Assembly (NCBI GenBank): GCA_965208575.1
Contig: CBDBOV010000005.1
Location: 480,001-544,000 of the forward strand
Length of the DNA stretch: 64,000 nucleotides
From: Spirochaetia bacterium
GTDB lineage: Bacteria; Spirochaetota; Spirochaetia; SZUA-6; Bin103
Direction of reading: 5' to 3'
Below the pieces are notes generated by a model, which was not told where the DNA came from, did no database searches, and saw only the letters and a list, made by a program, of their open reading frames with translations. The stretch's first letter is position 1. Each line of letters begins with the position of its first letter. Position numbers and translations under genes: made by a program. Below, one piece after another: positions 48,851 to 64,000 of this stretch.

Positions 48851-49048
48851 GTGCTTTTGACTGACGGCGAATTCGCTTCCATCCTGAGTGACGACACCAA
48901 GCGTATCGAGCAGGACCTTGCCTGGAATGAGGACGAGGACCACTCCCCGGCGTTTGAGTTCCGTGTCAACGTCGACTCGACGAGTGGGTGGCCGTTGTTC
49001 GTAAAGGGACGCTACAACGCGGCGGCCGGGACGCTGAATTACGTGTAA
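48851..49048 (+). pseudogene. Short, probably truncated partner of the DUF1828-like gene
   Basis: 65 aa ORF whose TAA overlaps the next ATG. Confidence 0.45.
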
Positions 49049-49827
49049 TGAAAGACCGTTGCGTGTACCAGGATCTGCAGCGAGAGATCGGCGCATTGTT
49101 CACGTGTTCAGATCACGGCGAATATCAGAGAATACGCACGCCCTATCTCTACCCGGACGGCGATCACATCGATCTCTTCTGTAAGGTTGTCGATGACGTA
49201 GTGACGGTAAGCGACCTCGCTGAGACCACGGGTTGGCTGCGCATGCAGTCGCTGGCCATGCGCCGTTCTCCGAAGCAAAGACGACTTATAGAAGATACTT
49301 GTGTGACTCATGGGATAGAGCTCTACCGCGGAATGCTTCAGGCGCGGTGCCGTCGCGGCGACGAATTGGCTTCCGTCGTTACGCGGGTCGCGCAGGCGGC
49401 TCTGCGGGTTTCCGACTTGTGGTTTACGTTTCGAACGCAGGCCGTGCAGTCAATTACGGACGAAGTAGCAGATTTTCTCGACGACCGCGAGCTAGGATTC
49501 GAGCGCTCCGAGAGACTCGCCGGCCGGTCGGGACGTGGTTGGACGGTCGATTTCCACGTTCGGGCCGAGTCTCGAAGTTCATTGGTTCAGGTGCTGAGCA
49601 CCGGAAATCGGGCGGCGGCCCACCGAGTCTCCGAGCATGTGTTGGCGGCGTGGCACGATCTAAATCACCTTGCAGCCGGGCCGGAAGCGCTAACCTTCGT
49701 TTCGCTGTTCGACGACACCGCCGACGTATGGGCGGATGAGGACTTTCGGTTGGTCGAGCCGCTGTCCATAGTGTCACGCTGGTCGCGGCCCGACGAACTC
49801 GCCGCTGTTCTGAGCGGGGCAGCATGA
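49048..49827 (+). CDS. DUF1828/DUF1829-like protein
   Basis: IRTPYLYPDGDHIDLF...VSDLAET, plus a C-terminal restriction-like LAGRSGRGWTVDF. Confidence 0.7.
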   Translation: MKDRCVYQDLQREIGALFTCSDHGEYQRIRTPYLYPDGDHIDLFCKVVDDVVTVSDLAETTGWLRMQSLAMRRSPKQRRLIEDTCVTHGIELYRGMLQARCRRGDELASVVTRVAQAALRVSDLWFTFRTQAVQSITDEVADFLDDRELGFERSERLAGRSGRGWTVDFHVRAESRSSLVQVLSTGNRAAAHRVSEHVLAAWHDLNHLAAGPEALTFVSLFDDTADVWADEDFRLVEPLSIVSRWSRPDELAAVLSGAA

Positions 49828-50012
49828 CAAGCACTCCGGATCCAGGAGCACGGCGTGGGCGAGATCATTTCGCGGTTCGATGGTGATCCGCGAGGTGCTG
49901 GAAGCCGACGATGGCAGGTCGCATGGAGTATCCGTGAGCCAGGAGCAGCCCATAGCCGACGTGGATCGACGGCTCTGCGCGGCGTGTCGCGACCCCAGGA
50001 CATAGTGCGAAG

Positions 50013-51146
50013 ATGAGCAACGGCGAGTTGAACTGGATCGCGAACTACATCTGGGGCATCGCCGACGATGTCCTGCGCGACCTGTACGTGCGCGGCAAGT
50101 ACCGCGACGTGATCCTGCCGATGACCGTGCTGCGGCGCCTCGACGCGGTATTGGAGGATAGCAAGCAGGCGGTCCTGGACATGAAGGCTTCGCTCGACGC
50201 CGCCGGAGTGGTGGAGCAGGACCCCGCCCTGCGCCAAGCGGCCGGTCAGGCGTTCTACAATACCTCCCGCTTCACCCTGAGCGACCTGCGCGCTCGCGCC
50301 AACCCGCAGCAGCTCGCCGCCGACTTCACGGCGTACCTCGACGGGTTCTCGCCTAACGTGCAGGACATCCTCGGCAACTTCGAGTTCCGCAACCAGATCC
50401 CGCGCCTGTCCCGTGCCGACGCCCTGGGCACCCTGATCGAGAAGCTCACCTCGCCCGACATCAATCTGAGCCCCGCTGCGGTTCGCAACGCCGACGGCTC
50501 GGTCAAGCATCCCGGGCTCGACAACCACGGCATGGGCACGATCTTCGAGGAGCTCGTGCGCCGTTTCAACGAGGAGAACAACGAGGAGGCGGGCGAGCAC
50601 TGGACCCCGCGCGACGCCGTTCGGTTGATGGCGAAGCTGGTCTTCCTGCCCATCGCCGATCAGATCACTTCCGGCACCTACTTGCTGTACGCCGGCGCCT
50701 GCGGCACCGGCGGCATGCTGACCGTGGCCGAGGAGACGCTGCAGGAACTCGCCGCCGAACACGGCAAGGAGGTCGCCACCCACCTGTACGGCCAGGAGAT
50801 CAACGCCGAGACCTTCGCCATCTGCAAGGCAGACCTGCTGCTGAAAGGGGAGGGCGAGGCCGCTGACAACATCGTGGGCGGCCCCGAGCACTCCACCCTG
50901 TTCAAGGACGCCTTCCCGTCGCACGAGTTCGACTTCATGCTCTCCAATCCGCCCTACGGCAAGAGCTGGAAGACCGACTTGGAGCGGATGGGCGGCAAGC
51001 GCGACATGCGCGACCCCCGCTTCGTGATCGAGCACGCGGGCGATCCCGAGTACTCGCTGGTGACCCGCTCCAGCGACGCCCAGATGCTGTTCCTGGCCAA
51101 CAAGCTCTCCAAAATGAAGCAGGCCACCGCCCTCGGCAGCCGCATC
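50013..51146 (+). pseudogene. hsdM: Truncated type I methyltransferase copy
   Basis: Near-identical to the 55067 copy up to ALGSRI. Motif I is altered (LYAGACG vs LYDGACG) and the C-terminal part is lost. Confidence 0.88.
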
Positions 51147-51282
51147 CGCCAACCCGTAGTCAAGGTTCCTGTTGACTCGTTCACGATCTGTAGTAATGCT
51201 AGCTTGAGCGACAGCAGGCATGCTTGGCCGGTGGCTCGGTCGGGCATGCTGGTGAATAGCGCCGGGCGAGAGAGGAGCAACC

Positions 51283-53061
51283 ATGCGGATATCGAGAATC
51301 CAGATTCAGAACTTTCGGAACTTCAAGGCTCTCGATGTTTGTCTGGGGCGCAGCACGGTGATCGTCGGCGAGAATAAGATCGGAAAGACGAACCTGCTGC
51401 ACGCGATTCGGCTCGTCCTTGACCCGTCGTTGCCTGACACTGCGCGGCAGTTGAGGGATGAGGACTTCTGGGACGGGCTACCGCGGCCGGTAGCTCGGGA
51501 ACAAAAGATTACGGTCTCGATTGATCTGGCGGAGTTTGAGGAGGACGAGAACCAAGTTGCATTGCTGTGTGAGCATCTAGTGGAGCCTGAGCCAATGGTT
51601 GCTCGATTGACGTATGTCTTTCAGTGTTTAGACACCGTCGAGGGCGAGCCTACCAAGGAGTCCGACTACGAGTTTTTCCTCTACGGTGGAGATAGGCCAG
51701 AAAGCCGTCTGGATTTTGGTCTTAGGCACCGTCTACCTCTTGATTTGTTGCCGGCACTTCGCGACGCTGAGGGCGACCTTGGAAGCTGGCGACGTTCTCC
51801 TCTACGCCCGCTCCTCGACGGTGTGGGCGGACGTATTAGTCGGGACGAACTTAGGACGCTTTCCGAGAACATTTCCGCAGCTACCGAAGCTGTGGCGCAG
51901 AACGAGGAAGTGAAGGGCCTCGTCCAGGCTATCAATACTCGCGTGGCCGATATGGTGGGTTCCAATCACTCTGTGGAGACAGAACTCGGCTTTTCTCCGG
52001 GTGATCCAGGGCGGCTGTTGCGAGCGTTGCGCCTGTTCATAGATGGGAGAAGGCGCGAGATCGGAGCTGCAAGCCTGGGATCAACGAACGTGCTCTACCT
52101 CACGCTTAAGGCTCTCGGACTTGATCAAGCAGTCGCGGATGGACAGCGCCATCACACGTTTCTGGCAATAGAGGAGCCGGAGGCGCACCTGCATCCTCAT
52201 CTTCAGCGACTCGTCTACCGCGACTTTCTTCGTTCTGAGGAGCAGCAAGACGACCCACGACCAATAACGGTCATCCTCACGACGCACTCACCGCACATTG
52301 TGAGCGTCGCGCCGCTGCACTCCCTTGTCCTGCTGCGCAAGGCGAGTGATGGCCAGAGTAGCGAGGGTGTATCGACGGCCCAACTAGAACTCACGCCTGA
52401 AGTTGTGGCCGACCTAGAGCGATATCTTGACGTTACTCGCGGCGAAATGCTCTTCGCTAAGGGCGTGCTTCTTGTCGAAGGTGACGCCGAGCGTTTCCTT
52501 CTGCCCTCTCTTGCCAATGCTAATGGGATCGATTTCGACGAGCTCGGGATTACCGTATGCTCCGTAGCGGGTACGAATTTTTTGCCTTACATGGAGTTGC
52601 TCGGTGACTGCGGGTTGCAGATCCCTGTAGCTGTCGTGACAGATGGAGATCCGGTAGACGACGGGAAGAAGCGTGGAGAGGCTCGAGTCCGAAGGCTACT
52701 CAAGGCTATCGTTGCACCGGAGGATTTGGACGGACGCACGAGAAGTCAGAGGCTGTGTATGGCAAGGGAACGAGGGCTCTTCGTTGGAGAACACACTTGT
52801 GAGATAGACCTGTTTCGGAGTGGCCTCCATGACGAGATCAGTCAGACACTGTTCGATCTCGCTCCGGGCGACGCTGTAAGGACTAGGGCGCAGCAATGGC
52901 AGGCCGAGCCAGATAGTGTGGATCCGGCTCGGCTTATGAAGGACATAACTGCGATCGGGAAGGGTCGCTTTGCGCAACACTTATCGACGCAGATCACCGC
53001 TGGGGTGTGGCCAGACTACATTGGAGAAGCCGTGACGTATGTCCGCAATCGCTGCCGTTAG
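51283..53061 (+). CDS. gajA: OLD-family ATP-dependent nuclease (GajA-like)
   Basis: GENKIGKT, IEEPEAHLHP, LTTHSP, and TOPRIM motifs LLVEGDAE and TDGD. Confidence 0.85.
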   Translation: MRISRIQIQNFRNFKALDVCLGRSTVIVGENKIGKTNLLHAIRLVLDPSLPDTARQLRDEDFWDGLPRPVAREQKITVSIDLAEFEEDENQVALLCEHLVEPEPMVARLTYVFQCLDTVEGEPTKESDYEFFLYGGDRPESRLDFGLRHRLPLDLLPALRDAEGDLGSWRRSPLRPLLDGVGGRISRDELRTLSENISAATEAVAQNEEVKGLVQAINTRVADMVGSNHSVETELGFSPGDPGRLLRALRLFIDGRRREIGAASLGSTNVLYLTLKALGLDQAVADGQRHHTFLAIEEPEAHLHPHLQRLVYRDFLRSEEQQDDPRPITVILTTHSPHIVSVAPLHSLVLLRKASDGQSSEGVSTAQLELTPEVVADLERYLDVTRGEMLFAKGVLLVEGDAERFLLPSLANANGIDFDELGITVCSVAGTNFLPYMELLGDCGLQIPVAVVTDGDPVDDGKKRGEARVRRLLKAIVAPEDLDGRTRSQRLCMARERGLFVGEHTCEIDLFRSGLHDEISQTLFDLAPGDAVRTRAQQWQAEPDSVDPARLMKDITAIGKGRFAQHLSTQITAGVWPDYIGEAVTYVRNRCR

Positions 53062-54865
53062 ACCATCATCCACGTACCGGTATGCCGTCGAGGAGCTTCG
53101 AGGAAACCCCGGTCAGTGGCAGGCCTACAATGCCGTACGGCACTGCGCTGTACTTGCGGGCCCGGGCAGCGGCAAGACGAAGACACTCACGGTGAAGATT
53201 GCGAAATTGCTGGTCGAGAGCGTCCGGGAGCCACGCGGGTTGGCTTGTATCACCTACAATTCGGAGTGCGCACGCGAGCTAGTGACCAGACTCGAACGGT
53301 TAGGAGTCTATAGAGCTGACCACGTCTTCATCGGTACCGTTCACTCGTTCTGCCTCAGGAGGGTATTGATCCCCTACGTCGCTCTATCGGCGATCGAACT
53401 TCCGCAGGACTTCCGGGTAGCACAACCGAGTGAACAGGATACCCTATTCGGCCGAGCAGTCGAACTGGCAATCGGCGCGGACGAGCCACCGGGGCGCTGG
53501 AGGACACGAGCCGATGAGTACCGGCGCACGCACCTCGATCGAAGCTCCGACGAGTGGCAGGAGGACGAGCAGCTCGCATCACTCGTCGCCGAATACGAGT
53601 GCCTGTTGCGACAACGCGGGATGATCGACTTCGACGATATGGTGCTGTTGGGGCTGAGACTGATTGAGTCGCAGCGCTGGGTGCGAAGGGCGCTCCACGC
53701 GAAGTTCCCGTTCATCATCGTGGACGAATACCAAGATCTGGGCGTTCCACTTCATCGGATCGTGCGGAGCCTGTGCTTTCAAGCTGGTTCGTGTCTGTTT
53801 GCTGTTGGTGACCCTGATCAGTCGATCTATGGTTTCAACGGAGCTCGTCCCGAGCTACTTCGCCGCTTGGCTGATTCGCCACGCGTGGAGTCGATTCGTT
53901 TGCCGTTCAACTACCGCAGTGGTCCTACGATTGTCCGGGCCTCGGAAGTCGCCCTAGGTGAGGTGCGAGGCTACGAAGCACGAGGTGTTGGCAGGGGAAC
54001 TGTCGACCTACACGAGCGTCGGGGCGGTCTTCGAGACCAAGCACGGTACATCTGTGGGCAACTGATTCCAAATGCGATGGAGCGCGTCGAAGGCTTGCGG
54101 ATCGGTGATGTTGCTGTGCTCTATCTGGACAAGAATGACGGAGACGTGATTGCTGGGGTGGCAAGCGAGCATCGTGTTCCAACCATGAGAATAGACAGGG
54201 GCGCCCCCTACCCGAAGGCGCCGTTGACACGGTGGTTAGAAGACTGTGCCGCGTGGTGTGGAGGTGGCTGGAAGGTTGGCGCCCCCAGGTTGTCGTCCCT
54301 CCTGGCTACCTGGGCCTCGATCGTGAGGATCCCTGTCTCGTCTGATGCGCGATGGCATCACCACAAGGTGTGCTTGGTGCGCTTCCTTTTGTCGCATCGG
54401 AGTGGCGAGCTACCGCTTCGGGATTGGCTGACGAGGTTCTGGAAGGATTGTCTTGGTACACTCGACTCGGACACTACGCTGCGCGACGAGCGGGATGTGC
54501 TGGCGAGCGTCACCGAGGCCTCCAAAGTCAACGGCGCTATCGGCGAATGGAACGTGCGTCTCTTTGGTGGACAGGGCGGTTCGCCCGATCACTTGAATCT
54601 CATCACTCTGCACAGTGCGAAGGGGCTGGAATTCAGAGTTGTCGTCATGATGGGTATGGAACAGGGAAGAATTCCGCGCTGGGACGCTAGCGAACAGAAA
54701 AAGCGCGAAGAGCGCCGGCTGTTTTATGTCGGCCTCAGCCGGGCCAAGGACGAAGTCCACTTGACCTACTCGGGCTGGACAGCGAACCAGTATGGCCGCC
54801 GGTTCTGGAACGGTCCGTCTGAATTCCTTGTGGAAATTCGTGATAGCCTCCTGACGGACGTGTAA
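53039..54865 (+). CDS. gajB: UvrD-like helicase (GajB-like)
   Basis: AGPGSGKT, VDEYQD, GDPDQSIY, NYRS, HSAKGLEF, EERRLFYV; overlaps the OLD nuclease gene. Confidence 0.82.
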   Translation: MSAIAAVRPSSTYRYAVEELRGNPGQWQAYNAVRHCAVLAGPGSGKTKTLTVKIAKLLVESVREPRGLACITYNSECARELVTRLERLGVYRADHVFIGTVHSFCLRRVLIPYVALSAIELPQDFRVAQPSEQDTLFGRAVELAIGADEPPGRWRTRADEYRRTHLDRSSDEWQEDEQLASLVAEYECLLRQRGMIDFDDMVLLGLRLIESQRWVRRALHAKFPFIIVDEYQDLGVPLHRIVRSLCFQAGSCLFAVGDPDQSIYGFNGARPELLRRLADSPRVESIRLPFNYRSGPTIVRASEVALGEVRGYEARGVGRGTVDLHERRGGLRDQARYICGQLIPNAMERVEGLRIGDVAVLYLDKNDGDVIAGVASEHRVPTMRIDRGAPYPKAPLTRWLEDCAAWCGGGWKVGAPRLSSLLATWASIVRIPVSSDARWHHHKVCLVRFLLSHRSGELPLRDWLTRFWKDCLGTLDSDTTLRDERDVLASVTEASKVNGAIGEWNVRLFGGQGGSPDHLNLITLHSAKGLEFRVVVMMGMEQGRIPRWDASEQKKREERRLFYVGLSRAKDEVHLTYSGWTANQYGRRFWNGPSEFLVEIRDSLLTDV

Positions 54866-55066
54866 CCTTGAACTATGATGGGCGATGCGTACCTAGCGTG
54901 GTTTCGGGTTGGCAAATGACTGCATCCCCGGCCATTACTTGTGGTGTAGTATTGGTTCACGGTCACGCGTTGGGGGCAGGGTGGGTATGCCGTAGGGTGT
55001 CTAGTACAGGGCTTACAGACGAGTGAACGAGCGACGGAGGCTCCGTTCGAAGGGAGTAGCGCGACG

Positions 55067-57139
55067 ATGAGGGATGGCGAGTTGAACTGGATCGCGAATT
55101 ACATCTGGGGTATCGCCGACGATGTGCTGCGCGACCTCTACGTGCGTGGTAAGTACCGGGATGTGATCCTGCCGATGACGGTGCTTCGCCGCCTCGACGC
55201 GGTGCTGGAAGGCACCAAGCGGGACGTCCTAGACATGAAGGCTTCGCTCGACGCCGCCGAAGTGGTGGAGCAGGACCCGGCGCTACGACAGGCGGCAGGC
55301 CAAGCGTTCTACAACACCTCCCGATTCACCTTGCGCGACCTGCGCGCCCGTGCCAACCGCCAGCAGCTCACCGCCGACTTCACGGTGTACCTCGACGGGT
55401 TTTCGCCCACTGTGCAGGACATTCTCGACAACTTCGAGTTCCGCAACCAGATCCCACGGCTGTCCCGCGCCGACGCCCTGGGCACCCTGATCGAGAAGCT
55501 CACCTCGCCCGACATCAACCTGAGCCCCGACCCGGTGCGCCACGCCGACGGCTCGGTCAAGCATCCCGGCCTCGACAACCACGGCATGGGCACGATCTTC
55601 GAGGAGCTGGTGCGGCGCTTCAACGAGGAGAACAACGAGGAGGCGGGCGAGCACTGGACCCCGCGCGACGCCGTGCGGTTGATGGCGAAGCTGGTCTTCC
55701 TGCCCATCGCCGACCAGATCAGCTCCGGGACCTACCTGCTGTACGACGGCGCCTGCGGCACGGGCGGCATGCTGACCGTGGCCGAGCAGACGCTGCAGGA
55801 ACTCGTCGCCGAGCGTGATAAGGAGGTTGCCACCCACCTGTACGGCCAGGAGATCAACGCCGAGACCTACGCCATCTGCAAGGCAGACCTGCTGCTGAAG
55901 GGTGAGGGCGAGGCCGCCGACAACATAGTCGGAGGCCCCGAGCATTCCACCCTGTTCAAGGACGCCTTCCCGTCGCACGAGTTCGACTTCATGCTCTCCA
56001 ATCCGCCCTACGGCAAGAGCTGGAAGACCGATTTGGAGCGCATGGGCGGCAAGCGCGACATGCGCGACCCCCGTTTCGTGATCGAGCACGCCGGCGACCC
56101 CGAGTACTCCCTGGTGACCCGCTCCAGCGACGGCCAGATGCTGTTCCTGGCCAACAAGCTTTCCAAGATGAAGCACGGCACCGCGCTCGGCAGCCGCATC
56201 GCCGAGGTACACAACGGCAGTTCGCTGTTCACCGGCGCCGCCGGTCAGGGCGAGAGCAACATCCGCCGCTGGATCATCGAGAACGACTGGCTGGAGGCGA
56301 TCGTCGCCCTGCCGCTCAACATGTTCTACAACACCGGCATCGCCACCTACGTCTGGGTGCTCACCAACCGCAAGCCCGAGCATCGCCGCGGCAAGGTGCA
56401 GCTCATCGACGCCACGGGCTGGCACCGTCCGCTGCGCAAGAATCTGGGCAAGAAGAACTGCGAGCTCGGCGAGGAGGACATCACCCGAATCTGCGATACC
56501 TTCCTCGCGTTTGAGGAGACGGAGCAGAGCAAGATCTTCGACAATGACACCTTCGGCTACTGGAGGGTCACGGTGGAGCGTCCCCTGCGAATTGAAGGAG
56601 CCGACCCCAACCGCCCCTATAAGGCCGCCGAGATCAAGAAACTCAAGGAAACCGGCGAGCGTAGCGAGACGGCGCCGCCGATCATCAGGAAGATCCACAA
56701 GCGAGGCATCGACGCTGATCCACTACACGGCCGGTTCGCAGCCTCCGTCGACGGAAAGCCGGCCGTTGTGGAGTACGAGCCCGACACCGAGATGCGCGAC
56801 ACCGAGCAGATCCCTCTGCAGGAGGCTGGTGGCATCGAAGCCTTCCTGAGGTGCGAGGTCCTGCCCTACGCCTCTGACGCTTGGTACCGGCCGGACAGCG
56901 TGCAAACCGGCTACGAGATCAGCTTCACCCGCTACTTCTATAAACCAAAACCCATGCGTACTCTGGTAGAGATACGTGCTGATATCCTCGCGCTGGAGCG
57001 AGAAACGGAGGGACTGCTGACAGACATCCTAGCACTTGAGCCGGGCATGTCGGAACTTGCGCCCCATCTGGGTGTACAACCACGTAAACGGACGCAAGGG
57101 TTGCCCCGTCATCGACATTCAGACTTGGGAACTGAGTGA
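55067..57139 (+). CDS. hsdM: Type I R-M N6-adenine methyltransferase
   Basis: YDGACGTGGM (motif I), NPPY (motif IV), FYNTGIATY. Confidence 0.93.
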   Translation: MRDGELNWIANYIWGIADDVLRDLYVRGKYRDVILPMTVLRRLDAVLEGTKRDVLDMKASLDAAEVVEQDPALRQAAGQAFYNTSRFTLRDLRARANRQQLTADFTVYLDGFSPTVQDILDNFEFRNQIPRLSRADALGTLIEKLTSPDINLSPDPVRHADGSVKHPGLDNHGMGTIFEELVRRFNEENNEEAGEHWTPRDAVRLMAKLVFLPIADQISSGTYLLYDGACGTGGMLTVAEQTLQELVAERDKEVATHLYGQEINAETYAICKADLLLKGEGEAADNIVGGPEHSTLFKDAFPSHEFDFMLSNPPYGKSWKTDLERMGGKRDMRDPRFVIEHAGDPEYSLVTRSSDGQMLFLANKLSKMKHGTALGSRIAEVHNGSSLFTGAAGQGESNIRRWIIENDWLEAIVALPLNMFYNTGIATYVWVLTNRKPEHRRGKVQLIDATGWHRPLRKNLGKKNCELGEEDITRICDTFLAFEETEQSKIFDNDTFGYWRVTVERPLRIEGADPNRPYKAAEIKKLKETGERSETAPPIIRKIHKRGIDADPLHGRFAASVDGKPAVVEYEPDTEMRDTEQIPLQEAGGIEAFLRCEVLPYASDAWYRPDSVQTGYEISFTRYFYKPKPMRTLVEIRADILALERETEGLLTDILALEPGMSELAPHLGVQPRKRTQGLPRHRHSDLGTE

Positions 57140-57420
57140 TGAAGCCTGAGCCTTCCACCGAGCGCTTCGATTGCGTTGGCTACACGCGTGACGTCCGCGA
57201 CCGAATCGGCGCCGAGATCGCGACGATGGACGACGGCGAGTTGACGCGATGCCTGCGCGGCACCCGGCCCCCGTCGCCCAATTACTCGCGCCAGACGAGA
57301 GTCTGGAGGATGGGCGTCCAGAACGGTATGATCACGATGATCGAGATCATCTTTGAACTCGCCCGGCTGCACTTCGAGCGGCTTCGGGAGCCGGATCGAA
57401 GCATCCCGACAGTCAACTAG
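57136..57420 (+). CDS. Small hypothetical protein (probable TA remnant)
   Basis: ERFDCVGYTRDVRDRIGAEIA resembles small PIN-associated proteins; the C-terminus looks scrambled. Confidence 0.35.
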   Translation: MMKPEPSTERFDCVGYTRDVRDRIGAEIATMDDGELTRCLRGTRPPSPNYSRQTRVWRMGVQNGMITMIEIIFELARLHFERLREPDRSIPTVN

Positions 57421-57432
57421 AGGAACACCGCT

Positions 57433-58443
57433 TTGAAGCCCCGGCGTGATTTGCTGGAATCCATCGCTGACACCATCAAAGACTACCGCGTCGATGACCT
57501 TCCAGAGCCGACGCCGGACCATGTCGACAAGTGGATCCGTCAGTTCGAGCCGGATGTCCAGCGACCGATGTTGCACGAGATGGATCATGTTCTGCGCCAG
57601 ACCTACTTCTCGAAAGCGGCCGTACTCGGGATTTTCGAGAGAGTGATCAAGAACGTCGAGCTGACCAACGGCGATCCTCATGGATTCTGGCGTTCAGCCC
57701 ACCTGCTCGATATTCAGCAGGACGGGAACAGCCAAGCTGATATTCGGCGACTGTTCTGCGACGCCGTCAAGCGACAGTGGGGCCTAACCACAGGTGCCGG
57801 TGAATGCGTGTTCGTGTACCTGGACGACGTGCTATTCAGTGGGAGTCGGATAGGGAACGATCTATCGGCCTGGATCACCGGTGAGTCCCCCTCGGCCGCG
57901 ACTGTACATGTGGTGGTGATCGCTGCGCACCGTTTCGGGGAGTGGAAGTGCCGAGAGCGGCTCAAGAAGGCTGCGAGCGATGTGGGCAAGCGGGTGCAGT
58001 TTCACTTCTGGTCAGCGTTGCTTATTGAAAATCGACTCTCGTACCGCAACGTATCGGAGGTACTATGGCCCGTAACTGTTCCGAACGACGACGCCCTGTC
58101 GGCGTACCTCGCAGAGGAAACGAGATTTCCCTTCAGGCCGCGAGTGCCCGGCGGACAGTCCGAACATCGGATATTTTCTTCAGAAGAGGGGCGTCAGTTG
58201 TTGGAGAGGGAGCTGTTGCTTGCCGGAATCCAAATCCGGTCATTGAGCCAGCATCCAAGTCCGGCGATGCGGCCGCTGGGATTCAGCCCGTTCGGCCTCG
58301 GCTTTGGCTCTACGATCGTAACCTACCGCAATTGCCCGAACAACGCACCGCTGGCGCTCTGGTGGGGTGATCCCGAGGCTGACCAGAATCATCCCTTTTC
58401 CGGGTGGTGGCCGCTCGTGCAGCGTAAAGCCTATGCACGGTAG
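57433..58443 (+). CDS. Phosphoribosyltransferase-fold protein (conflict-associated PRTase-like)
   Basis: PRPP-binding loop VFVYLDDVLFSGSR, following strand VHVVVIAA, C-terminal NCPNNAPLALW; GAGG RBS + TTG start. Confidence 0.75.
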   Translation: MKPRRDLLESIADTIKDYRVDDLPEPTPDHVDKWIRQFEPDVQRPMLHEMDHVLRQTYFSKAAVLGIFERVIKNVELTNGDPHGFWRSAHLLDIQQDGNSQADIRRLFCDAVKRQWGLTTGAGECVFVYLDDVLFSGSRIGNDLSAWITGESPSAATVHVVVIAAHRFGEWKCRERLKKAASDVGKRVQFHFWSALLIENRLSYRNVSEVLWPVTVPNDDALSAYLAEETRFPFRPRVPGGQSEHRIFSSEEGRQLLERELLLAGIQIRSLSQHPSPAMRPLGFSPFGLGFGSTIVTYRNCPNNAPLALWWGDPEADQNHPFSGWWPLVQRKAYAR

Positions 58444-58449
58444 AGAGGT

Positions 58450-60564
58450 ATGATGGTACCTAGCGCATCGGCTGCGCTTCACCGCCAGAAACGTACGTAT
58501 GACCGCACGAATAGCGTTGTGTTCCTCAAAACGAGGGAGCGGTACGGCGGTCTGTCGAATATGGCCGGTGGGTTTCCCCTACGGGTGAACGGCCTGCGCA
58601 TTCTCACCTCTGAAGCGCTCTATCAAGCGTGTCGGTTTCCGCACCGGCCCGATCTGCAGCGGATGGTCATCGAGCAGCGTAGTCCGATGACGGCCAAGAT
58701 GAAGAGCAAGCCACACAGATATGAGACGCGGCGGGACTGGAACCGAGTGCGTGTCGCCATCATGCGTTGGTGCCTGCGCGTCAAGCTCGCACAGAATGCC
58801 GCCGCGTTCCGCAATCTGCTGTTGAGCACCGGAGACCTCGCGATCGTAGAGGAATCCCGAAGGGACGACTTCTGGGGAGCGAATCCTATAGACGAAAATA
58901 GGCTCGTCGGTGTGAACGCGCTCGGGCGGTTGCTGATGGAGTTACGGGAACTGGTCAAGAGCGAGCCTCAAGACAGCCTGCTGGACGTAGACCTCCCGTC
59001 AATACCCCATTTTCTGCTCGACGGGCGCCCTATTCAGCGGATTTTTTCCGGACGGGTGTGTGGCAGAGGCAAAGAGAAGGGAGATCCCCCGGCTTCGGCC
59101 GAGCAGCTTCGCACCGTAGACTCGAAGGTAGCGTCGTCACTTCTGAACTCCGCGATACCAACGGACTCTTCGCCCGCACGGAAGGATTCGCCGGAACATC
59201 GGAAGGAGGACGATCTGGCGCCTTCGGGTACGTATGCGGGCTACAAGAACTCCGGCGTCGAGTGGTTGGGAGAGGTGCCGACTCATTGGGACGTGCTGAG
59301 AGTCAAGGCATGGCTGGGCGTCAACCAACTGGTGCTGCCGGAAGACACCGATCCAGACTACACGTTCGACTACGTGGACATCGGGTCTGTGACGACCGGG
59401 CAGCTCTCGGCAAGACCCGAACGAATTCGTTTCGGAGACGCACCGTCTCGCGCTAGGCGCGTGGTCAGGCCCGGCGACACGCTTTTTTCGACAGTGAGGA
59501 CCTATCTGAAGGCGGTCTGGCATGTGGAACACTTGCGTACCGATCTGATCGCGTCAACTGGTTTCGCAGTATTTACGCCGCGGCACGGCACGGTCCCGAA
59601 GTTCACGAGCTACTTCTTCCAGAGTAATCCGTTCACAGACCGCGTAGCGGCTGAGTCAGTGGGAATGGCTTATCCAGCCATTGCCGAGGCGAGATTGGGG
59701 ACGCTCGAAGTGTGTGTGCCGCCTTTCGCGGAGCAAGCTGAGATCGTCGGCTTCCTCGACGACGCCGACCGGCACATTCGGCGCTACATCCGTGCCAAGC
59801 AGAAGTTGATCGTACTGCTGGAGGAGCAGAAGCAGGTCCTCATCCACGAGGCCGTCACCGGGAGGATCGACGTGCGGACAGGGCGACCGTATCCGTCCTA
59901 TAAGGACTCGGAGATCAAGTGGTTGGGGGCGGTGCCTACGCATTGGCAAGTACGCGCAGCAAAGTGGTACTTCCGGGAGTCCAACCACCGATCGGATACC
60001 GGTTCCGAGGAACTTCTATCTGTGTCACACATTACAGGTGTGACGCCGCGCAGTGGTAAGAGGAATGTCTCGATGTTCAAGGCTGAGTCGAACGTAGGGT
60101 ATAAGTTATGTGCGCCTGGCGACATTGTAGTGAATACGATGTGGGCTTGGATGTCCGCTTTGGGGATTGCCAGACAAAGCGGTATCGTCAGCCCGTCATA
60201 CGCTGTCTATCGCCCACGCGTGTCTTCGACGCTGAACGGAGAGTATGTCGACCTTTTGCTACGCACCGCGCCATACCAGAACGAGTACGTATGTAGGTCC
60301 ACTGGCATTCACTCTTCCCGATTAAGGTTGTATCCGGAGGACTTCTTGCGCATTCGGCTTCTTTGTCCGCCGGCGGAGGAGCAAGGCTCCATCGTTGATT
60401 TCGTCAATCGGGCATCAGACGTCACCGTTCGGTACATTGACCGTACATGCGACGAAATCGCTCGTCTTGAAGAGTACTGGGAACGCCTGATCGTCGATGT
60501 CGTCACGGGGAAGTTCGATGTTCGGGGGGCCACGGCTGAAATGAGGACGCTTGTTCAATTCTGA
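58450..60564 (+). CDS. hsdS: NADAR domain fused to the type I specificity subunit HsdS
   Basis: The N-terminal ~195 aa are NADAR (GGLSNM, SEALYQACRF, DW...MRWCLRVK, LLLSTG, IVEES.RDDFWG, NALGRLLMELR). From 59233 come HsdS repeats YKNSGVEWLGEVPTHW / YKDSEIKWLGAVPTHW, PP..EQ..IV.F and two TRDs. Confidence 0.9.
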   Translation: MMVPSASAALHRQKRTYDRTNSVVFLKTRERYGGLSNMAGGFPLRVNGLRILTSEALYQACRFPHRPDLQRMVIEQRSPMTAKMKSKPHRYETRRDWNRVRVAIMRWCLRVKLAQNAAAFRNLLLSTGDLAIVEESRRDDFWGANPIDENRLVGVNALGRLLMELRELVKSEPQDSLLDVDLPSIPHFLLDGRPIQRIFSGRVCGRGKEKGDPPASAEQLRTVDSKVASSLLNSAIPTDSSPARKDSPEHRKEDDLAPSGTYAGYKNSGVEWLGEVPTHWDVLRVKAWLGVNQLVLPEDTDPDYTFDYVDIGSVTTGQLSARPERIRFGDAPSRARRVVRPGDTLFSTVRTYLKAVWHVEHLRTDLIASTGFAVFTPRHGTVPKFTSYFFQSNPFTDRVAAESVGMAYPAIAEARLGTLEVCVPPFAEQAEIVGFLDDADRHIRRYIRAKQKLIVLLEEQKQVLIHEAVTGRIDVRTGRPYPSYKDSEIKWLGAVPTHWQVRAAKWYFRESNHRSDTGSEELLSVSHITGVTPRSGKRNVSMFKAESNVGYKLCAPGDIVVNTMWAWMSALGIARQSGIVSPSYAVYRPRVSSTLNGEYVDLLLRTAPYQNEYVCRSTGIHSSRLRLYPEDFLRIRLLCPPAEEQGSIVDFVNRASDVTVRYIDRTCDEIARLEEYWERLIVDVVTGKFDVRGATAEMRTLVQF

Positions 60565-60604
60565 GGAACCGGCTGACAAGTAAGCAATCGACCAGGAGGC
60601 GAAG

Positions 60605-60735
60605 TGTGATGGATGGAAAGCCTTCCGTGAAGTGGAACGGAGGCCTAGCAAGATTAGTGGCGCGTGGGCATTCACGGGAACACGGGTGCCGGTGTATACG
60701 CTGTTCAAGAACCTGAGAGAGGCGCTGGCCAATTG
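60605..60735 (+). pseudogene. DUF433 antitoxin-like remnant
   Basis: Translated by hand: EVERRPSKISGAWAFTGTRVPVYTLFKNL; no intact start codon. Confidence 0.55.
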
Positions 60736-60909
60736 AATCTGCCGTCCGATGAGGCATGTCGGTTATGTTGTGGGAGCGCCTTTCGGCGCATTCGGCGGAT
60801 AGTCTGCCGATTGGCGTGTGGTTCGCCTTCGGACCAGGGACGTCGGCGAGGGCGATTGCGGCCGTGGGTGCTGGTGAGATCATTGAAGTGCCCATTCGGG
60901 TGAAGTGAT

Positions 60910-63900
60910 ATGGCTACGGACACCACCGAACGGGCGCTGGAACGGCTGCTCTGCAGGGCACTGGCGGGCCACCCATGCGATCCGCCGGTCGAGGGCACCG
61001 TCGCAGATCCTCCGGCCGGCTACGGCGGAGTAGGGTGGAGCGGCGGAAGTTTCCATGACTACGACCGCGAATACTGCGTTGACTTGGTACAGTTCGCGGC
61101 GTTCTTGTGGGACACGCAGCCGGAGGCCGCCGAGGCGCTGGGACTGTGGCAGGACAGTCTTCCACGGCGAGCGTTTCTGACACGGCTGCAAGGCGAGGTG
61201 AGCAGGCGCGGCACGATCGATGTGCTGCGCAACGGGGTCAAGCACCGCGCGCTGCACGTCGAGTTGTTCTACGGCACACCGTCGGAGCACAACCGGCAGG
61301 CGCAGGAACGGTACGGGCAGAACCGGTTCACCGTGACCCGGCAGCTTCGCTACAGCCGGGATGAGGCGCAGCGGGCGCTGGACATCGGGTTGTTCATCAA
61401 CGGGTTGCCGGTGTTCACGTTCGAGCTGAAGAACAGCCTCACCAAGCAAACGGCGGATGACGCGGTGTTGCAGTACCAGCAGGATCGCAACCCGCGCGAG
61501 AAGCTGTTCGCGTTCGGGCGCTGCATCGCGCACTTCGCGGTGGACGAGCGCGAGGTGCAGTTCTGCACCCATCTCAAGGGAAAGGCATCGTGGTTCCTAC
61601 CGTTCAATCGCGGCTGGAACGACGGAGCGGGCAACCCGCCCAACCCACACGGGCTGGCGATCGATTACCTGTGGCGCGAGGTGCTGCCGACGGTGAGCGT
61701 GACCAACATCCTGGAGAACTACGCCCAGGTGGTAGAGGAGAAGGACGACAAGACCGGCAAGAAGCGGCGGGCGCAGGTCTGGCCGCGCTACCACCAGCTC
61801 GACGTGGTACGCCGCCTGCTGGCCGACGCCGAATCCCACGGGGCGGGCCGGCGCTACCTGATCCAGCACTCGGCCGGCAGTGGCAAGAGCAATTCCATTG
61901 CTTGGCTGGCGCATCAGCTCATCGGGTTGACCAGAGACGATGCACCGGTGTTCGACTCGATCATCGTGGTCACCGACCGGCGCATCCTCGACCGGCAGAT
62001 CCGCGACACCATCCGGCAGTACGCCCAGGTGTCGGCGACGGTCGGGCACGCCGACCGCTCGGGCGATCTGCGCCGGTTCATCGAGAGCGGCAAGAAGATT
62101 ATCATCTCCACGGTGCAGAAGTTCCCGTTCATCCTCGACGAGATCGGCAACGAGCAGCGCGGGCGCAGCTTCGCGATCATCATCGACGAGGCGCACTCCA
62201 GCCAGGGCGGCCGTACCAGCGCGGCGATGGCGCAGGCGCTGTCGGCGGCCGGCGAGGTGGACGAGGAGGAAACCTACGAGGACCAGATCAACCGCTTGAT
62301 GGAGTCGCGCAAGCTTTTGCCGAACGCCAGTTACTTCGCGTTTACCGCCACCCCCAAGAACAAGACGCTGGAGATCTTCGGTACTCTCGACCCGCAGCCG
62401 GACGGGACGGTGAGGCACTACGCGTTCCACAGCTACACCATGAAGCAGGCGATCCAGGAGGGGTTCATCCTCGACGTGCTCGCCCGCTACACGCCGGTGG
62501 CCAGCTACTACCGGCTGGCCAAGACGGTGGAGGACGACCCGGAGTTCGACGTCAAGAAGGCGCAGAGGAAGCTACGCCGGTTCGTGGAGGGCAGCGACCA
62601 CGCGACCCGCCTCAAGGCCGAGATCATGGTCGACCACTTCCACGACCAGGTGCTGGCGCAGGGCAAGATCGGCGGCGCGGCGCGGGCGATGGTGGTAACC
62701 AACGGCATAGAACGCGCCATCCAGTACTACCACGCCATCAGCGACTACCTGGCCGAGCGCAAGAGCCGCTACCAGGCCCTGGTCGCCTTCTCCGGCGAGC
62801 ACGAGTACGGCGGCGTGAGGCTGACCGAGGCGTCGTTGAACGGTTTGCCGTCAGCGCAGATCGCTGACCGCTTCCAGGAGGATCCGTACCGCTTCCTGGT
62901 GTGCGCGGACAAGTTCCAGACCGGCTACGACGAGCCGCTGCTGCACACCATGTACGTGGACAAGACGCTGTCCGGCATCAAGGCCGTGCAGACCCTGTCG
63001 CGTCTCAACCGGGCGCACCCCAAGAAGCACGACGTGTTCGTACTCGATTTTCTGAACGACGCCGACACCATCCGCGAGGCGTTCGCGGACTTCTACCGGG
63101 CGACGATCCTGGCCGACGAGACCGACCCCAACAAGCTGCACGACCTGCAGGCCGACCTGGACGCTGCCCAGGTCTATTCCGAGGAGCAGGTAGAGGAACT
63201 GGTGCGGCGCTACCTTGGCGGTGCCGAGCGCGACCGGCTCGATCCGATCCTGGATGATTGTGTGGCGGTGTACCTGCGCGAGCTGGACGAGGACGGACAG
63301 GTGGAGTTCAAGGGCAATGCCAAGGCATTCGTCCGCACCTACGGCTTTCTCTCCGCGGTGCTGCCGTACGGCAACCCCGGCTGGGAGAAGCGCTCGATCT
63401 TCCTCAACCTGCTGGTGCCAAAGCTGCCGGCGCCGGAGGAGCCCGACCTTGCCAAGGGGATCCTGGACGCAATCGACCTGGACAGCTACCGGGTGGAGAA
63501 ACAGGCGATGCAGAAGATCCTGCTGCCGGACGAGGACGCCGAGATCGGCCCGGTGCCCACCTCGGCCGGCGGCTCCCGCCCGGAGCCGGAGCTGGACCGG
63601 CTCTCCGTCATCCTGCGCACCTTCAACGAGCACTTCGGCGACATCCGGTGGGAGGACGCCGACCGCGTGCGGCAGCTCATCATCGAGACCATCCCGTCCC
63701 GCGTCGCCGCCGACACCGCGTTCCGCAACGCGCGGCAGAACTCGGACCGCCAGAACGCGCGCATCGAGCACGACAAGGCACTACTCCGCGTGATGACCTC
63801 CGTGATGCGCGACGACACCGAGCTGTTCAAGCAGTTCATGGACAACGACAGCTTCAAGCGCTGGCTCACCGATACCGTGTTCTCGCTTGCCTACGAACCG

Positions 63901-63915
63901 GCGGGCCCGGCCTGA
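60910..63915 (+). CDS. hsdR: Type I restriction endonuclease subunit R
   Basis: FELKN nuclease motif, HSAGSGKS, IIIDEAH, FTATP, QTLSRLNR. Confidence 0.93.
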   Translation: MATDTTERALERLLCRALAGHPCDPPVEGTVADPPAGYGGVGWSGGSFHDYDREYCVDLVQFAAFLWDTQPEAAEALGLWQDSLPRRAFLTRLQGEVSRRGTIDVLRNGVKHRALHVELFYGTPSEHNRQAQERYGQNRFTVTRQLRYSRDEAQRALDIGLFINGLPVFTFELKNSLTKQTADDAVLQYQQDRNPREKLFAFGRCIAHFAVDEREVQFCTHLKGKASWFLPFNRGWNDGAGNPPNPHGLAIDYLWREVLPTVSVTNILENYAQVVEEKDDKTGKKRRAQVWPRYHQLDVVRRLLADAESHGAGRRYLIQHSAGSGKSNSIAWLAHQLIGLTRDDAPVFDSIIVVTDRRILDRQIRDTIRQYAQVSATVGHADRSGDLRRFIESGKKIIISTVQKFPFILDEIGNEQRGRSFAIIIDEAHSSQGGRTSAAMAQALSAAGEVDEEETYEDQINRLMESRKLLPNASYFAFTATPKNKTLEIFGTLDPQPDGTVRHYAFHSYTMKQAIQEGFILDVLARYTPVASYYRLAKTVEDDPEFDVKKAQRKLRRFVEGSDHATRLKAEIMVDHFHDQVLAQGKIGGAARAMVVTNGIERAIQYYHAISDYLAERKSRYQALVAFSGEHEYGGVRLTEASLNGLPSAQIADRFQEDPYRFLVCADKFQTGYDEPLLHTMYVDKTLSGIKAVQTLSRLNRAHPKKHDVFVLDFLNDADTIREAFADFYRATILADETDPNKLHDLQADLDAAQVYSEEQVEELVRRYLGGAERDRLDPILDDCVAVYLRELDEDGQVEFKGNAKAFVRTYGFLSAVLPYGNPGWEKRSIFLNLLVPKLPAPEEPDLAKGILDAIDLDSYRVEKQAMQKILLPDEDAEIGPVPTSAGGSRPEPELDRLSVILRTFNEHFGDIRWEDADRVRQLIIETIPSRVAADTAFRNARQNSDRQNARIEHDKALLRVMTSVMRDDTELFKQFMDNDSFKRWLTDTVFSLAYEPAGPA

Positions 63916-64000
63916 ATCGCTGCAGCGGCGCGCCAGACGCTGCCCAGCCTGCCTGGTGTGCGACTCACGGCATCCAACGCAGAGGTGGCGAAGGCCTCCC

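Follow-up and report, generated by a model that had tools for sequence, protein, structure and literature searches.

DS-32 is an anti-phage system of Escherichia coli that pairs a NADAR gene with a phosphoribosyltransferase (PRTase) gene, as set out in passages of the DefensePredictor study (10.1101/2025.01.08.631726; PMC13092281). The systems discovered in that study are transcription units that cut phage plating at least ten-fold once cloned in E. coli. The sections on DS-32 describe the NADAR protein, DS-32B, as structurally like the DarTG antitoxin and the PRTase, DS-32A, as having neither structural nor sequence likeness to DarT, and propose that toxin-antitoxin partners were swapped with DarTG (10.1101/2025.01.08.631726). 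The Science version, in its corresponding passage, touches on the NADAR case in passing only (PMC13092281), and the mechanism is left unsolved in these parts of the study (10.1101/2025.01.08.631726; PMC13092281). Supplements aside, the DS-32 passages of the two papers make no mention of restriction-modification (R-M) or of HsdS, its type I specificity subunit. Here we consider a stretch of 64,000 nucleotides (nt) from a Spirochaetia bacterium (GCA_965208575.1, contig CBDBOV010000005.1, positions 480,001 to 544,000 of the forward strand; hereafter the window), in which a pair of the DS-32 type lies inside a type I R-M operon and its NADAR domain is joined in one open frame to HsdS.

PrrC, an anticodon nuclease, is encoded within the EcoprrI type I R-M locus, and there the toxin itself binds the R-M complex. 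The locus described here would resemble it in having a harmful effector in an hsd operon and an R-M complex that keeps a second line silent until phage attack. The effector and its chemistry are different, however, the presumed antidote is here covalently fused to HsdS, and what is seen at the locus is the embedding alone.

In DarTG1 (DarT1 with a NADAR; PMC11543638), a NADAR likewise reverses the work of a nucleotide-sugar transferase in a defence role, and its catalytic and ligand-binding residues are kept. In contrast, the partner here has a PRTase fold and is not an ADP-ribosyltransferase, its donor would be phosphoribosyl pyrophosphate (PRPP) and not NAD+, and the NADAR carries a YbiA-type glutamate in place of the aspartate of the DarT1-linked clade. 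The effectors of type III-A retrons (Retron-Eco11; PMC12746101) belong to the same Pfam family, PRTase-CE, and have the PRPP loop and the PNNxP motif in common with our PRTase. Their surroundings differ, since the neighbours here are hsdM, a small open reading frame (ORF) and NADAR::hsdS, with no reverse transcriptase and no C-terminal winged helix; no non-coding RNA was seen either, although no search for one was made, and the partner is a NADAR rather than reverse transcriptase with multicopy single-stranded DNA. ShosTA, which is likened to our pair by its description, also uses a PRTase-type toxin in phage defence and has a link to DNA damage and repair, but in the relevant parts of that report ShosT combines a PRTase activity with a pyrophosphatase activity, and its antitoxin is a DNA-binding protein and not a NADAR (PMC11961720).

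The fused pair and its operon

Judged by profile searches, the PRTase and NADAR pair is not new and belongs to the catalogued DS-32. The PRTase matches the NCBIfam model NF053875 (DS32_1_antiphage) along its whole length (profile 1-322/322; 382 bits, cut-off 250, E = 2.2e-114), as do residues 15-195 of the fusion the model NF053876 (DS32_2_antiphage; profile 1-181/181, 265.6 bits, cut-off 240, E = 1.2e-79). A search of the genome confirmed the match to NF053875. The original prediction, made from the letters of the window without database searches, had offered the pair as a candidate new defence system and had named a match to a catalogued system as grounds for giving this up. For the pair such a match exists, with both proteins above the cut-offs of a system that is published and validated. 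As in DS-32, both genes are on one strand with the PRTase first, and gene order, tight coupling and the equally obligate pairing of PRTase and NADAR are the same. The published form is a free two-gene unit in which DS-32B is a free-standing single-domain protein, whereas here the NADAR forms the N-terminal part of the HsdS protein, within an hsdMSR operon that encloses the pair. Bacterial NADARs are mostly free-standing single domains according to passages of two NADAR papers, the passages on the subject in a survey of NAD-ADPr in viruses hold no link to HsdS, and no fused NADAR::HsdS form was found in the literature searched, where an older note of NADAR architectures may exist. By its sequence, then, the locus is a fused, R-M-embedded form of the known DS-32, of which we found no description in print.

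The locus is a composite of a complete type I R-M system and a DS-32 module between hsdM and hsdS. Its features, given below, are all on the + strand and bear out the anatomy of the original prediction, which had the same genes in this order, with a 6-nt gap containing GAGG and a fusion of 704 amino acids (aa).

55067-57139, + strand: hsdM, type I DNA methyltransferase subunit, 690 aa; Pfam HsdM_N (6e-20) and N6_Mtase (8.2e-49)
57136/57139-57420, + strand: small ORF, 94 aa from GTG at 57136 or 93 aa from ATG at 57139
57433-58443, + strand: PRTase-like gene of the DS-32A type, presumed effector, 336 aa; Pfam PRTase-CE (4.7e-48)
58450-60564, + strand: NADAR::HsdS fusion, a single open frame of 704 aa
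58492-59034, + strand: NADAR domain of the DS-32B type, residues 15-195; Pfam NADAR (7.6e-24)
59053-59223, + strand: flexible low-complexity linker, residues 202-258, with a predicted local distance difference test score (pLDDT) <50 in the AlphaFold2 (AF2) model
59230-60564, + strand: HsdS moiety, residues ~261-704, with two variable target-recognition domains (TRDs) and two conserved long helices
60910-63915, + strand: hsdR, type I restriction/translocase subunit, 1001 aa; Pfam HSDR_N, ResIII, SWI2_SNF2 and T1R_D3-like

The PRTase core is seen by fold comparison alone, its sequence having 0 matches in the PDB at E <= 1. The AF2 model of the protein has a pLDDT of 96.4 and a central sheet like that of uracil, orotate and purine PRTases and of PyrR (Foldseek probability of up to 1.00). 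This Foldseek check upheld the call of a PRTase fold, as the best matches were type I PRTases, with TM-scores of up to 0.55 on target length and ~0.2-0.3 on query length; because the match covers so little of the query, large N- and C-terminal parts would be family-specific. The PRTase-CE domain spans residues 31-331 of 336, to the protein's end, and a weak match to the PADLOC model PRTase_III-A falls at residues 279-333. Across 67 homologues there is little or no variation in a PRPP-loop-like YLDDxxFSG (Y129, D131, D132, G137) or in a TYRNCPNNxP block, and on these residues the PRTase looks active. PNNxP is given as a motif typical of retron type III-A PRTase effectors in the relevant part of the retron work (PMC12746101).

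For the NADAR domain the best solved relative is YbiA (2b3w; phmmer 4.9e-17). Across 67 fused homologues E55, R62, W97, R101, E134, D139 and W142 are invariant and K87 nearly so, and their spacing reproduces E43, K50, R79, W89, R93, E125, D130 and W133 of the P. nicotianae NADAR-ADP-ribose structure, residues that the passages on that structure report as catalytic or as binding the phosphates and distal ribose of ADP-ribose. The glutamate at E134 places the domain in the YbiA-type group and not in the DarT1-linked aspartate group, with which YbiA as the best solved relative agrees; a BC4488-clade NADAR, with its catalytic aspartate, is therefore not what is found here. The NADAR, too, looks active from its residues. 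A predicted complex of NADAR residues 1-200 (alignment A2) with the PRTase (alignment A1) scored 0.00, which is evidence neither way.

The second half of the fusion has the features of a working specificity subunit. Residues 261-691 match the PADLOC model Specificity_I (PDLC03191; 6.4e-76, profile 10-432/436), and since the profile is covered almost end to end both TRDs are present; the 704-aa protein also matches Pfam Methylase_S, and the solved S subunits 3okg and 5ybb are matched at ~7e-24 with phmmer. The AF2 model of the fusion gives a folded NADAR, the low-confidence stretch at 202-258 and then a confident two-TRD HsdS, with high pLDDT in the helices at 426-469 and 642-685. In the 67 fused proteins the TRD columns vary freely while both helical regions are strongly conserved, the pattern expected of working specificity subunits. 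The linker between the two halves, ~57-62 residues long and rich in a few residue types (S 9, P 6, D 6 and A 6 of 62), is predicted to be disordered and is variable in the same alignment.

The R-M system around the pair has the three parts that define type I: an HsdM methylase, a two-TRD HsdS, and an HsdR with a nuclease and a superfamily 2 motor. HsdM matches PADLOC MTase_I (PDLC03029) at 6.5e-234 and has the NPPY motif in its translation; its score of 87.9 bits against NCBIfam TIGR00497 is under the cut-off of 242.75, which suggests a divergent subfamily. HsdR matches PADLOC REase_I (2.1e-45), contains DEAH and ExK motifs, and reaches 186.9 bits (6.3e-55) with TIGR00348, under the cut-off of 284.55. 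The fusion holds the sole NADAR match and the sole Methylase_S match in the 95%-complete genome, so the R-M system would have no other S subunit to use. We conclude that the R-M system looks functional and looks dependent on the fusion.

The remaining features of the operon are minor. The ATG of the small ORF overlaps the hsdM stop as TGATG, a translationally coupled arrangement. The ORF at 57139-57420 has no family match in Pfam, PADLOC or NCBIfam, its best Atlas score of 0.79 is at an uninformative level, and a look-alike was found in 1 of the 27 fused genome loci introduced below (L002); because it is kept only there, and only partly, it is not counted as part of the system. The PRTase gene has a TTG start 8 nt after GAGGAA, and the gap between its stop and the ATG of the fusion (58444-58449) reads AGAGGT. 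A promoter and terminator scan of 54600-64000 gave matches no better than chance.

Distribution and history of the fusion

Residues 1-200 of the fusion were searched against 5.8 billion proteins, with lengths of 387-1232 aa and E <= 1e-3, which gave 976 matches; an HsdS-homologous region is also present in 118 of the best 120 of these (median 721.5 aa). The PRTase family, clustered at 50% identity, comprises 1016 clusters at E <= 1e-3 and 340 at E <= 1e-30. Gene neighbourhoods were taken from three sets of loci. The PRTase alignment (A1) found 292 relatives in a one-genome-per-species collection, the best 80 loci of which form the genome set; their ORFs were scored with the window's own proteins, and they span Acidobacteriota, Planctomycetota, Pseudomonadota, Chloroflexota, Gemmatimonadota and others. 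The metagenome set consists of 80 loci found through NADAR motifs, as a reciprocal test, and the viral set of 37 PRTase loci from IMG/VR. All three were seeded by relatives of the window's proteins, and the shares of the different forms given here and below are not population frequencies.

The survey of PRTase and NADAR adjacency and of NADAR-HsdS fusions that the original prediction had suggested gave a near-universal pairing and a recurrent fusion. A NADAR is directly downstream of the PRTase in 79/80 genome loci, the remaining one being cut at that point, and in 37/37 viral loci, while a PRTase is upstream of the NADAR in 75/80 metagenome loci. Two of the five metagenome misses are within ~180 nt of a contig end and one has 663 nt upstream; the other two (L123 and L153) are apparently true exceptions. 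These counts bear out the choice of the PRTase, and not of a DarT, as the partner of NADAR. DarT itself (PF14487) had no match in the bacterium's own genome, although the control genomes gave none either, so that its absence is weakly shown.

The full order hsdM-PRTase-NADAR::hsdS-hsdR is present in 49 loci (27 genome, 16 metagenome and 6 viral). The genes are tightly packed or overlapping, and the stop of hsdM overlaps the start of the PRTase gene in 12/27 fused genome loci. The fusion and its linker are kept across phyla in hundreds of protein clusters, and the fusion is probably maintained by selection. At the locus itself, 57100-61000 is covered with 0 differences by contigs from four sequencing runs, which are of one sample, possibly the source itself, and are not independent. 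By these comparisons the NADAR::HsdS fusion is real and common. The original prediction had allowed that the fusion might be a one-off or a sequencing error; since it recurs, that objection fails.

HsdS is one of several partners. The NADAR is fused to a DUF1156 methylase, HmaB, in 6/80 genome loci and 10/80 metagenome loci, in the order HmaA-PRTase-NADAR::HmaB-HmaC (for example L063, 6401-17933; also L004, L005, L054, L070, L103, L106, L115, L145 and L159). In L063 the flanking genes and the fused partner match PADLOC HmaA (1583 bits), HmaB (1102 bits) and HmaC (801 bits); in NCBIfam the same proteins resemble a DrmD-like helicase, an anti-phage-associated DUF1156 protein and a DUF499 protein, all under the cut-offs. 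The Hma system (HmaA helicase, HmaB methylase and HmaC ATPase) is absent from the window and serves as a parallel case only, with the same DS-32 insertion design in a different host system. The DS-32 pair has thus been inserted alike into two unrelated methylase-containing, restriction-like systems. In both, the gene for DNA recognition or methylation follows the pair directly and carries the NADAR at its N-terminus.

Other NADAR proteins of at least 300 aa were seen in 5/80 genome loci, 3 of them fusions to a helix-hairpin-helix (HhH) domain. Downstream of the PRTase in 2/80 metagenome loci (L138, 141-1868; L139, 802-2448) the NADAR is fused to DUF4365, which we take to be a restriction-endonuclease-like domain, and in another (L095, 5911-10101) a 1396-aa NADAR fusion without a recognised second domain follows the PRTase. 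One metagenome locus (L156, 702-2962) has a split form, in which a NADAR of 287 aa and an HsdS of 466 aa are ORFs that overlap by a few bases in the order PRTase-NADAR-HsdS-HsdR, as in the fused loci; it is either an intermediate or a frameshift. In the loci examined the NADAR alone is fused, and the PRTase never.

When the HsdS-fused label is mapped onto a maximum-likelihood tree of 81 PRTases, 12 changes are needed, at least 6 of which are forced by branches with Shimodaira-Hasegawa-like approximate likelihood ratio test (SH-aLRT) support >=95, and HmaB fusions appear in at least 2 places. Behind these changes would be either fusion or loss, in each case more than once. One origin for all HsdS fusions does not fit the tree, given its well-supported changes.

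Possible roles of the fused pair

We favour, with a probability of roughly 0.55, a reading in which the DS-32 module is toxin/antidote-like, is wired to the restriction complex and acts at DNA in the manner of a guard. The PRTase-like protein would be a harmful 'writer' that moves a (phospho)ribosyl group from PRPP onto a target nitrogen, and the NADAR, an N-glycosidase, would be the 'eraser' or antidote. These roles are proposed because a PRTase makes, and a NADAR breaks, the bond between ribose C1' and nitrogen, and because of the suggestion of the DS-32 authors and the role of NADAR beside DarT1. As the fusion partners HsdS, HmaB, HhH and DUF4365 bind or modify DNA, the most likely site of action for the antidote is DNA, and the relevant product of the PRTase would most likely be a DNA base adduct, comparable to the guanine ADP-ribosylation of the DarT1/NADAR pair. 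An antidote tethered to the methylase/restriction complex would couple the two defences. Phage interference with the R-M complex, by blocking, titrating or destroying it, or a stop in host synthesis would then remove the antidote from the DNA, and the PRTase would come into play as a second, abortive or replication-blocking line. A toxin whose antidote is tethered to HsdS as a guard is plausible. A fuller version is a good deal more tentative, and we think it rather unlikely as it stands, namely that DS-32 works by PRPP-dependent (phospho)ribosylation of DNA bases, with the eraser built into a self-marking HsdS or HmaB, and turns anti-restriction into DNA modification and abortive infection. 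Whether the marks of the writer last would then depend on how intact that complex is or on its engagement with DNA. If true, DNA (phospho)ribosylation as an immunity modification would be undescribed so far.

The fusions of NADAR to DNA-recognition and methylase proteins are in any case a clue to where DS-32 acts. The NADAR::HsdS protein offers a genetically simple model for cross-talk between R-M and toxin/antidote abortive defence, in which a covalent link takes the place of the non-covalent association of PrrC with EcoprrI and in which natural split, free and fused forms can be compared. It also follows that hundreds of proteins labelled 'type I restriction enzyme S subunit' or 'DUF1768/NADAR protein' are DS-32B::HsdS hybrids.

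Several points weigh against a module wired to the restriction complex. The free two-gene DS-32 protects E. coli, so that its basic action takes place without R-M, and the short unfused NADAR is the largest class in each of the three sets (41/80 genome, 46/80 metagenome and 30/37 viral loci). In the relevant parts of the reports on the two studied PRTase-type defence effectors, that of Retron-Eco11, of the PRTase-CE type, acts on nucleotide pools and about halves PRPP once triggered (PMC12746101), and ShosT disrupts purine metabolism and not DNA (PMC11961720). The NADAR has the YbiA-type glutamate and not the DarT1-linked aspartate, and the known substrates of YbiA, as described in passages of the NADAR literature, are small phosphoribosylamine metabolites, the phosphoribosylamino-pyrimidines. 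DarTG, GmrSD-like, Schlafen-like and NACHT-like cargo is also present in these hsd loci, and embedding alone is therefore no proof of cooperation. The mechanism is inferred, the system being known here from its genes.

The cargo bears on a different explanation, that DS-32 is simply lodged in an hsd operon, a known kind of hotspot, and works just as the free pair, with no mechanistic link to DNA recognition, the in-frame fusion securing co-expression, stoichiometry or co-inheritance and the toxin/antidote pair stabilising the R-M genes. Unrelated cargo does occupy the same two hsd positions, with DarT and DarG in 6/43 and a GmrSD-like gene in 10/43 of the fused genome and metagenome loci, and Schlafen-like and NACHT-like genes are found in hsd loci too. 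The activity of free DS-32 on its own, the separate overlapping ORFs of the split form and the signs of recombination at the window's locus, where a broken second hsdM is followed by Gabija, all agree with mere lodging. What it accounts for less well is that only the NADAR is fused and never the PRTase; that the identified partners, across four or more architectures, are all modules for DNA recognition, methylation or DNA binding; that fusion and linker have been kept across phyla in hundreds of protein clusters; and that no other cargo gene is fused to HsdS in the loci examined. We regard this explanation as possible, though improbable.

An account at the level of metabolites seems to us similarly doubtful. 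The PRTase would burn PRPP and make a soluble N-(phospho)ribosyl product that the NADAR hydrolyses. The hydrolysis would serve for detoxification or for recycling of the acceptor, the latter amounting to a futile PRPP-burning cycle, while the DNA-binding partner (HsdS, HmaB or HhH) would sense foreign DNA and activate the pair there, and would not mark the site of the substrate. The retron and ShosT precedents cited above speak for this account, as do the Pfam family and PNNxP motif held in common with the type III-A effectors and the YbiA-type glutamate at position 134, given the substrates of YbiA. On the other hand, all tested NADAR subtypes, YbiA types included, strip ADP-ribose from guanine in DNA in vitro, according to passages of the NADAR literature; an enzyme with a soluble substrate would gain little from a tether to DNA-binding proteins; and the HhH fusions have no obvious means of telling self from non-self.

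The second reading of the original prediction, in which HsdS carries the NADAR to its sites to strip ribosyl-type modifications of phage DNA that block restriction, fits poorly, and we consider it very unlikely. The tether to a sequence-recognition subunit would suit it, but it has no role for the PRTase, the obligate partner that adjoins the NADAR at almost every locus counted above, and the free pair defends without any R-M. To our knowledge no N-ribosyl-type anti-restriction modification of phage DNA has been described, which also counts against it. In its favour, passages of the NADAR literature show that NADARs can de-modify DNA bases.

That NADAR and hsdS are two genes joined by a sequencing or annotation error is hardly credible, for the separate ORFs of L156 are all that speaks for it, and the identical contigs of the four runs, the fused state of 118/120 best homologues and the 49 independent fused loci speak against it.

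The surrounding island and cargo in related loci

Immediately upstream of hsdM the window holds a complete Gabija system at 51283-54865 (+), with gajA (592 aa; PADLOC GajA 1.8e-219) and gajB (608 aa; PADLOC GajB 2.1e-220). It is preceded by a truncated second hsdM at 50013-51377 (+) that retains HsdM_N and the N-terminal half of N6_Mtase; its residues 1-378 share 93% identity with the intact copy at 55067, and the unrelated sequence after them continues into the start of gajA. At the nucleotide level, 50003-50302 and 55057-55356 form a repeat of 86% identity. The position of Gabija between a broken and an intact hsdM suggests recombination at hsdM. From ~0.65 on either side, the GC content falls to 0.54-0.61 across most of 51.5-61 kb, with up to 0.66 inside hsdM, and a sample of 400 other genomes of this phylum held no match to the DS32_2 model (0/400). 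Together, the hsdM repeat, Gabija, the GC content and the lack of matches in the phylum point to a horizontally acquired, recombining defence island. A protein with a DUF1828 domain (4.7e-10) is encoded at 48988-49827 (+), just upstream of the truncated hsdM.

Among the related loci, a DarT and DarG (macrodomain) pair is found between NADAR::hsdS and hsdR in five cases (L002, 14419-16175; L003, 15269-17007; L011, 13166-14909; L068, 13223-14939; L093, 8052-9749) and after hsdR in one (L085, 10372-12140). Three of these pairs were confirmed with NCBIfam equivalogs. The 6/43 HsdS-fused genome and metagenome loci compare with 0/117 other loci (Fisher p ~3e-4, with related loci not being independent). 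That one hsd operon should hold two toxin/antidote modules of a ribosyl-type, DNA-modifying kind may not be mere chance.

In one clade of fused loci a gene for a 598-aa GmrSD-like protein (type IV restriction) is inserted between hsdM and the PRTase gene (L009, 8164-9960), and the same insertion is present in L013, L014, L015, L022, L041, L083, L090, L094 and L096. A further GmrSD-like copy, in L018 (18902-20698), is outside the gap between hsdM and the PRTase. The same slots hold Schlafen AlbA_2/HATPase_c_4 genes in three loci (L018, L021 and L050) and a 1564-aa NACHT/AAA-like gene in another (L012).

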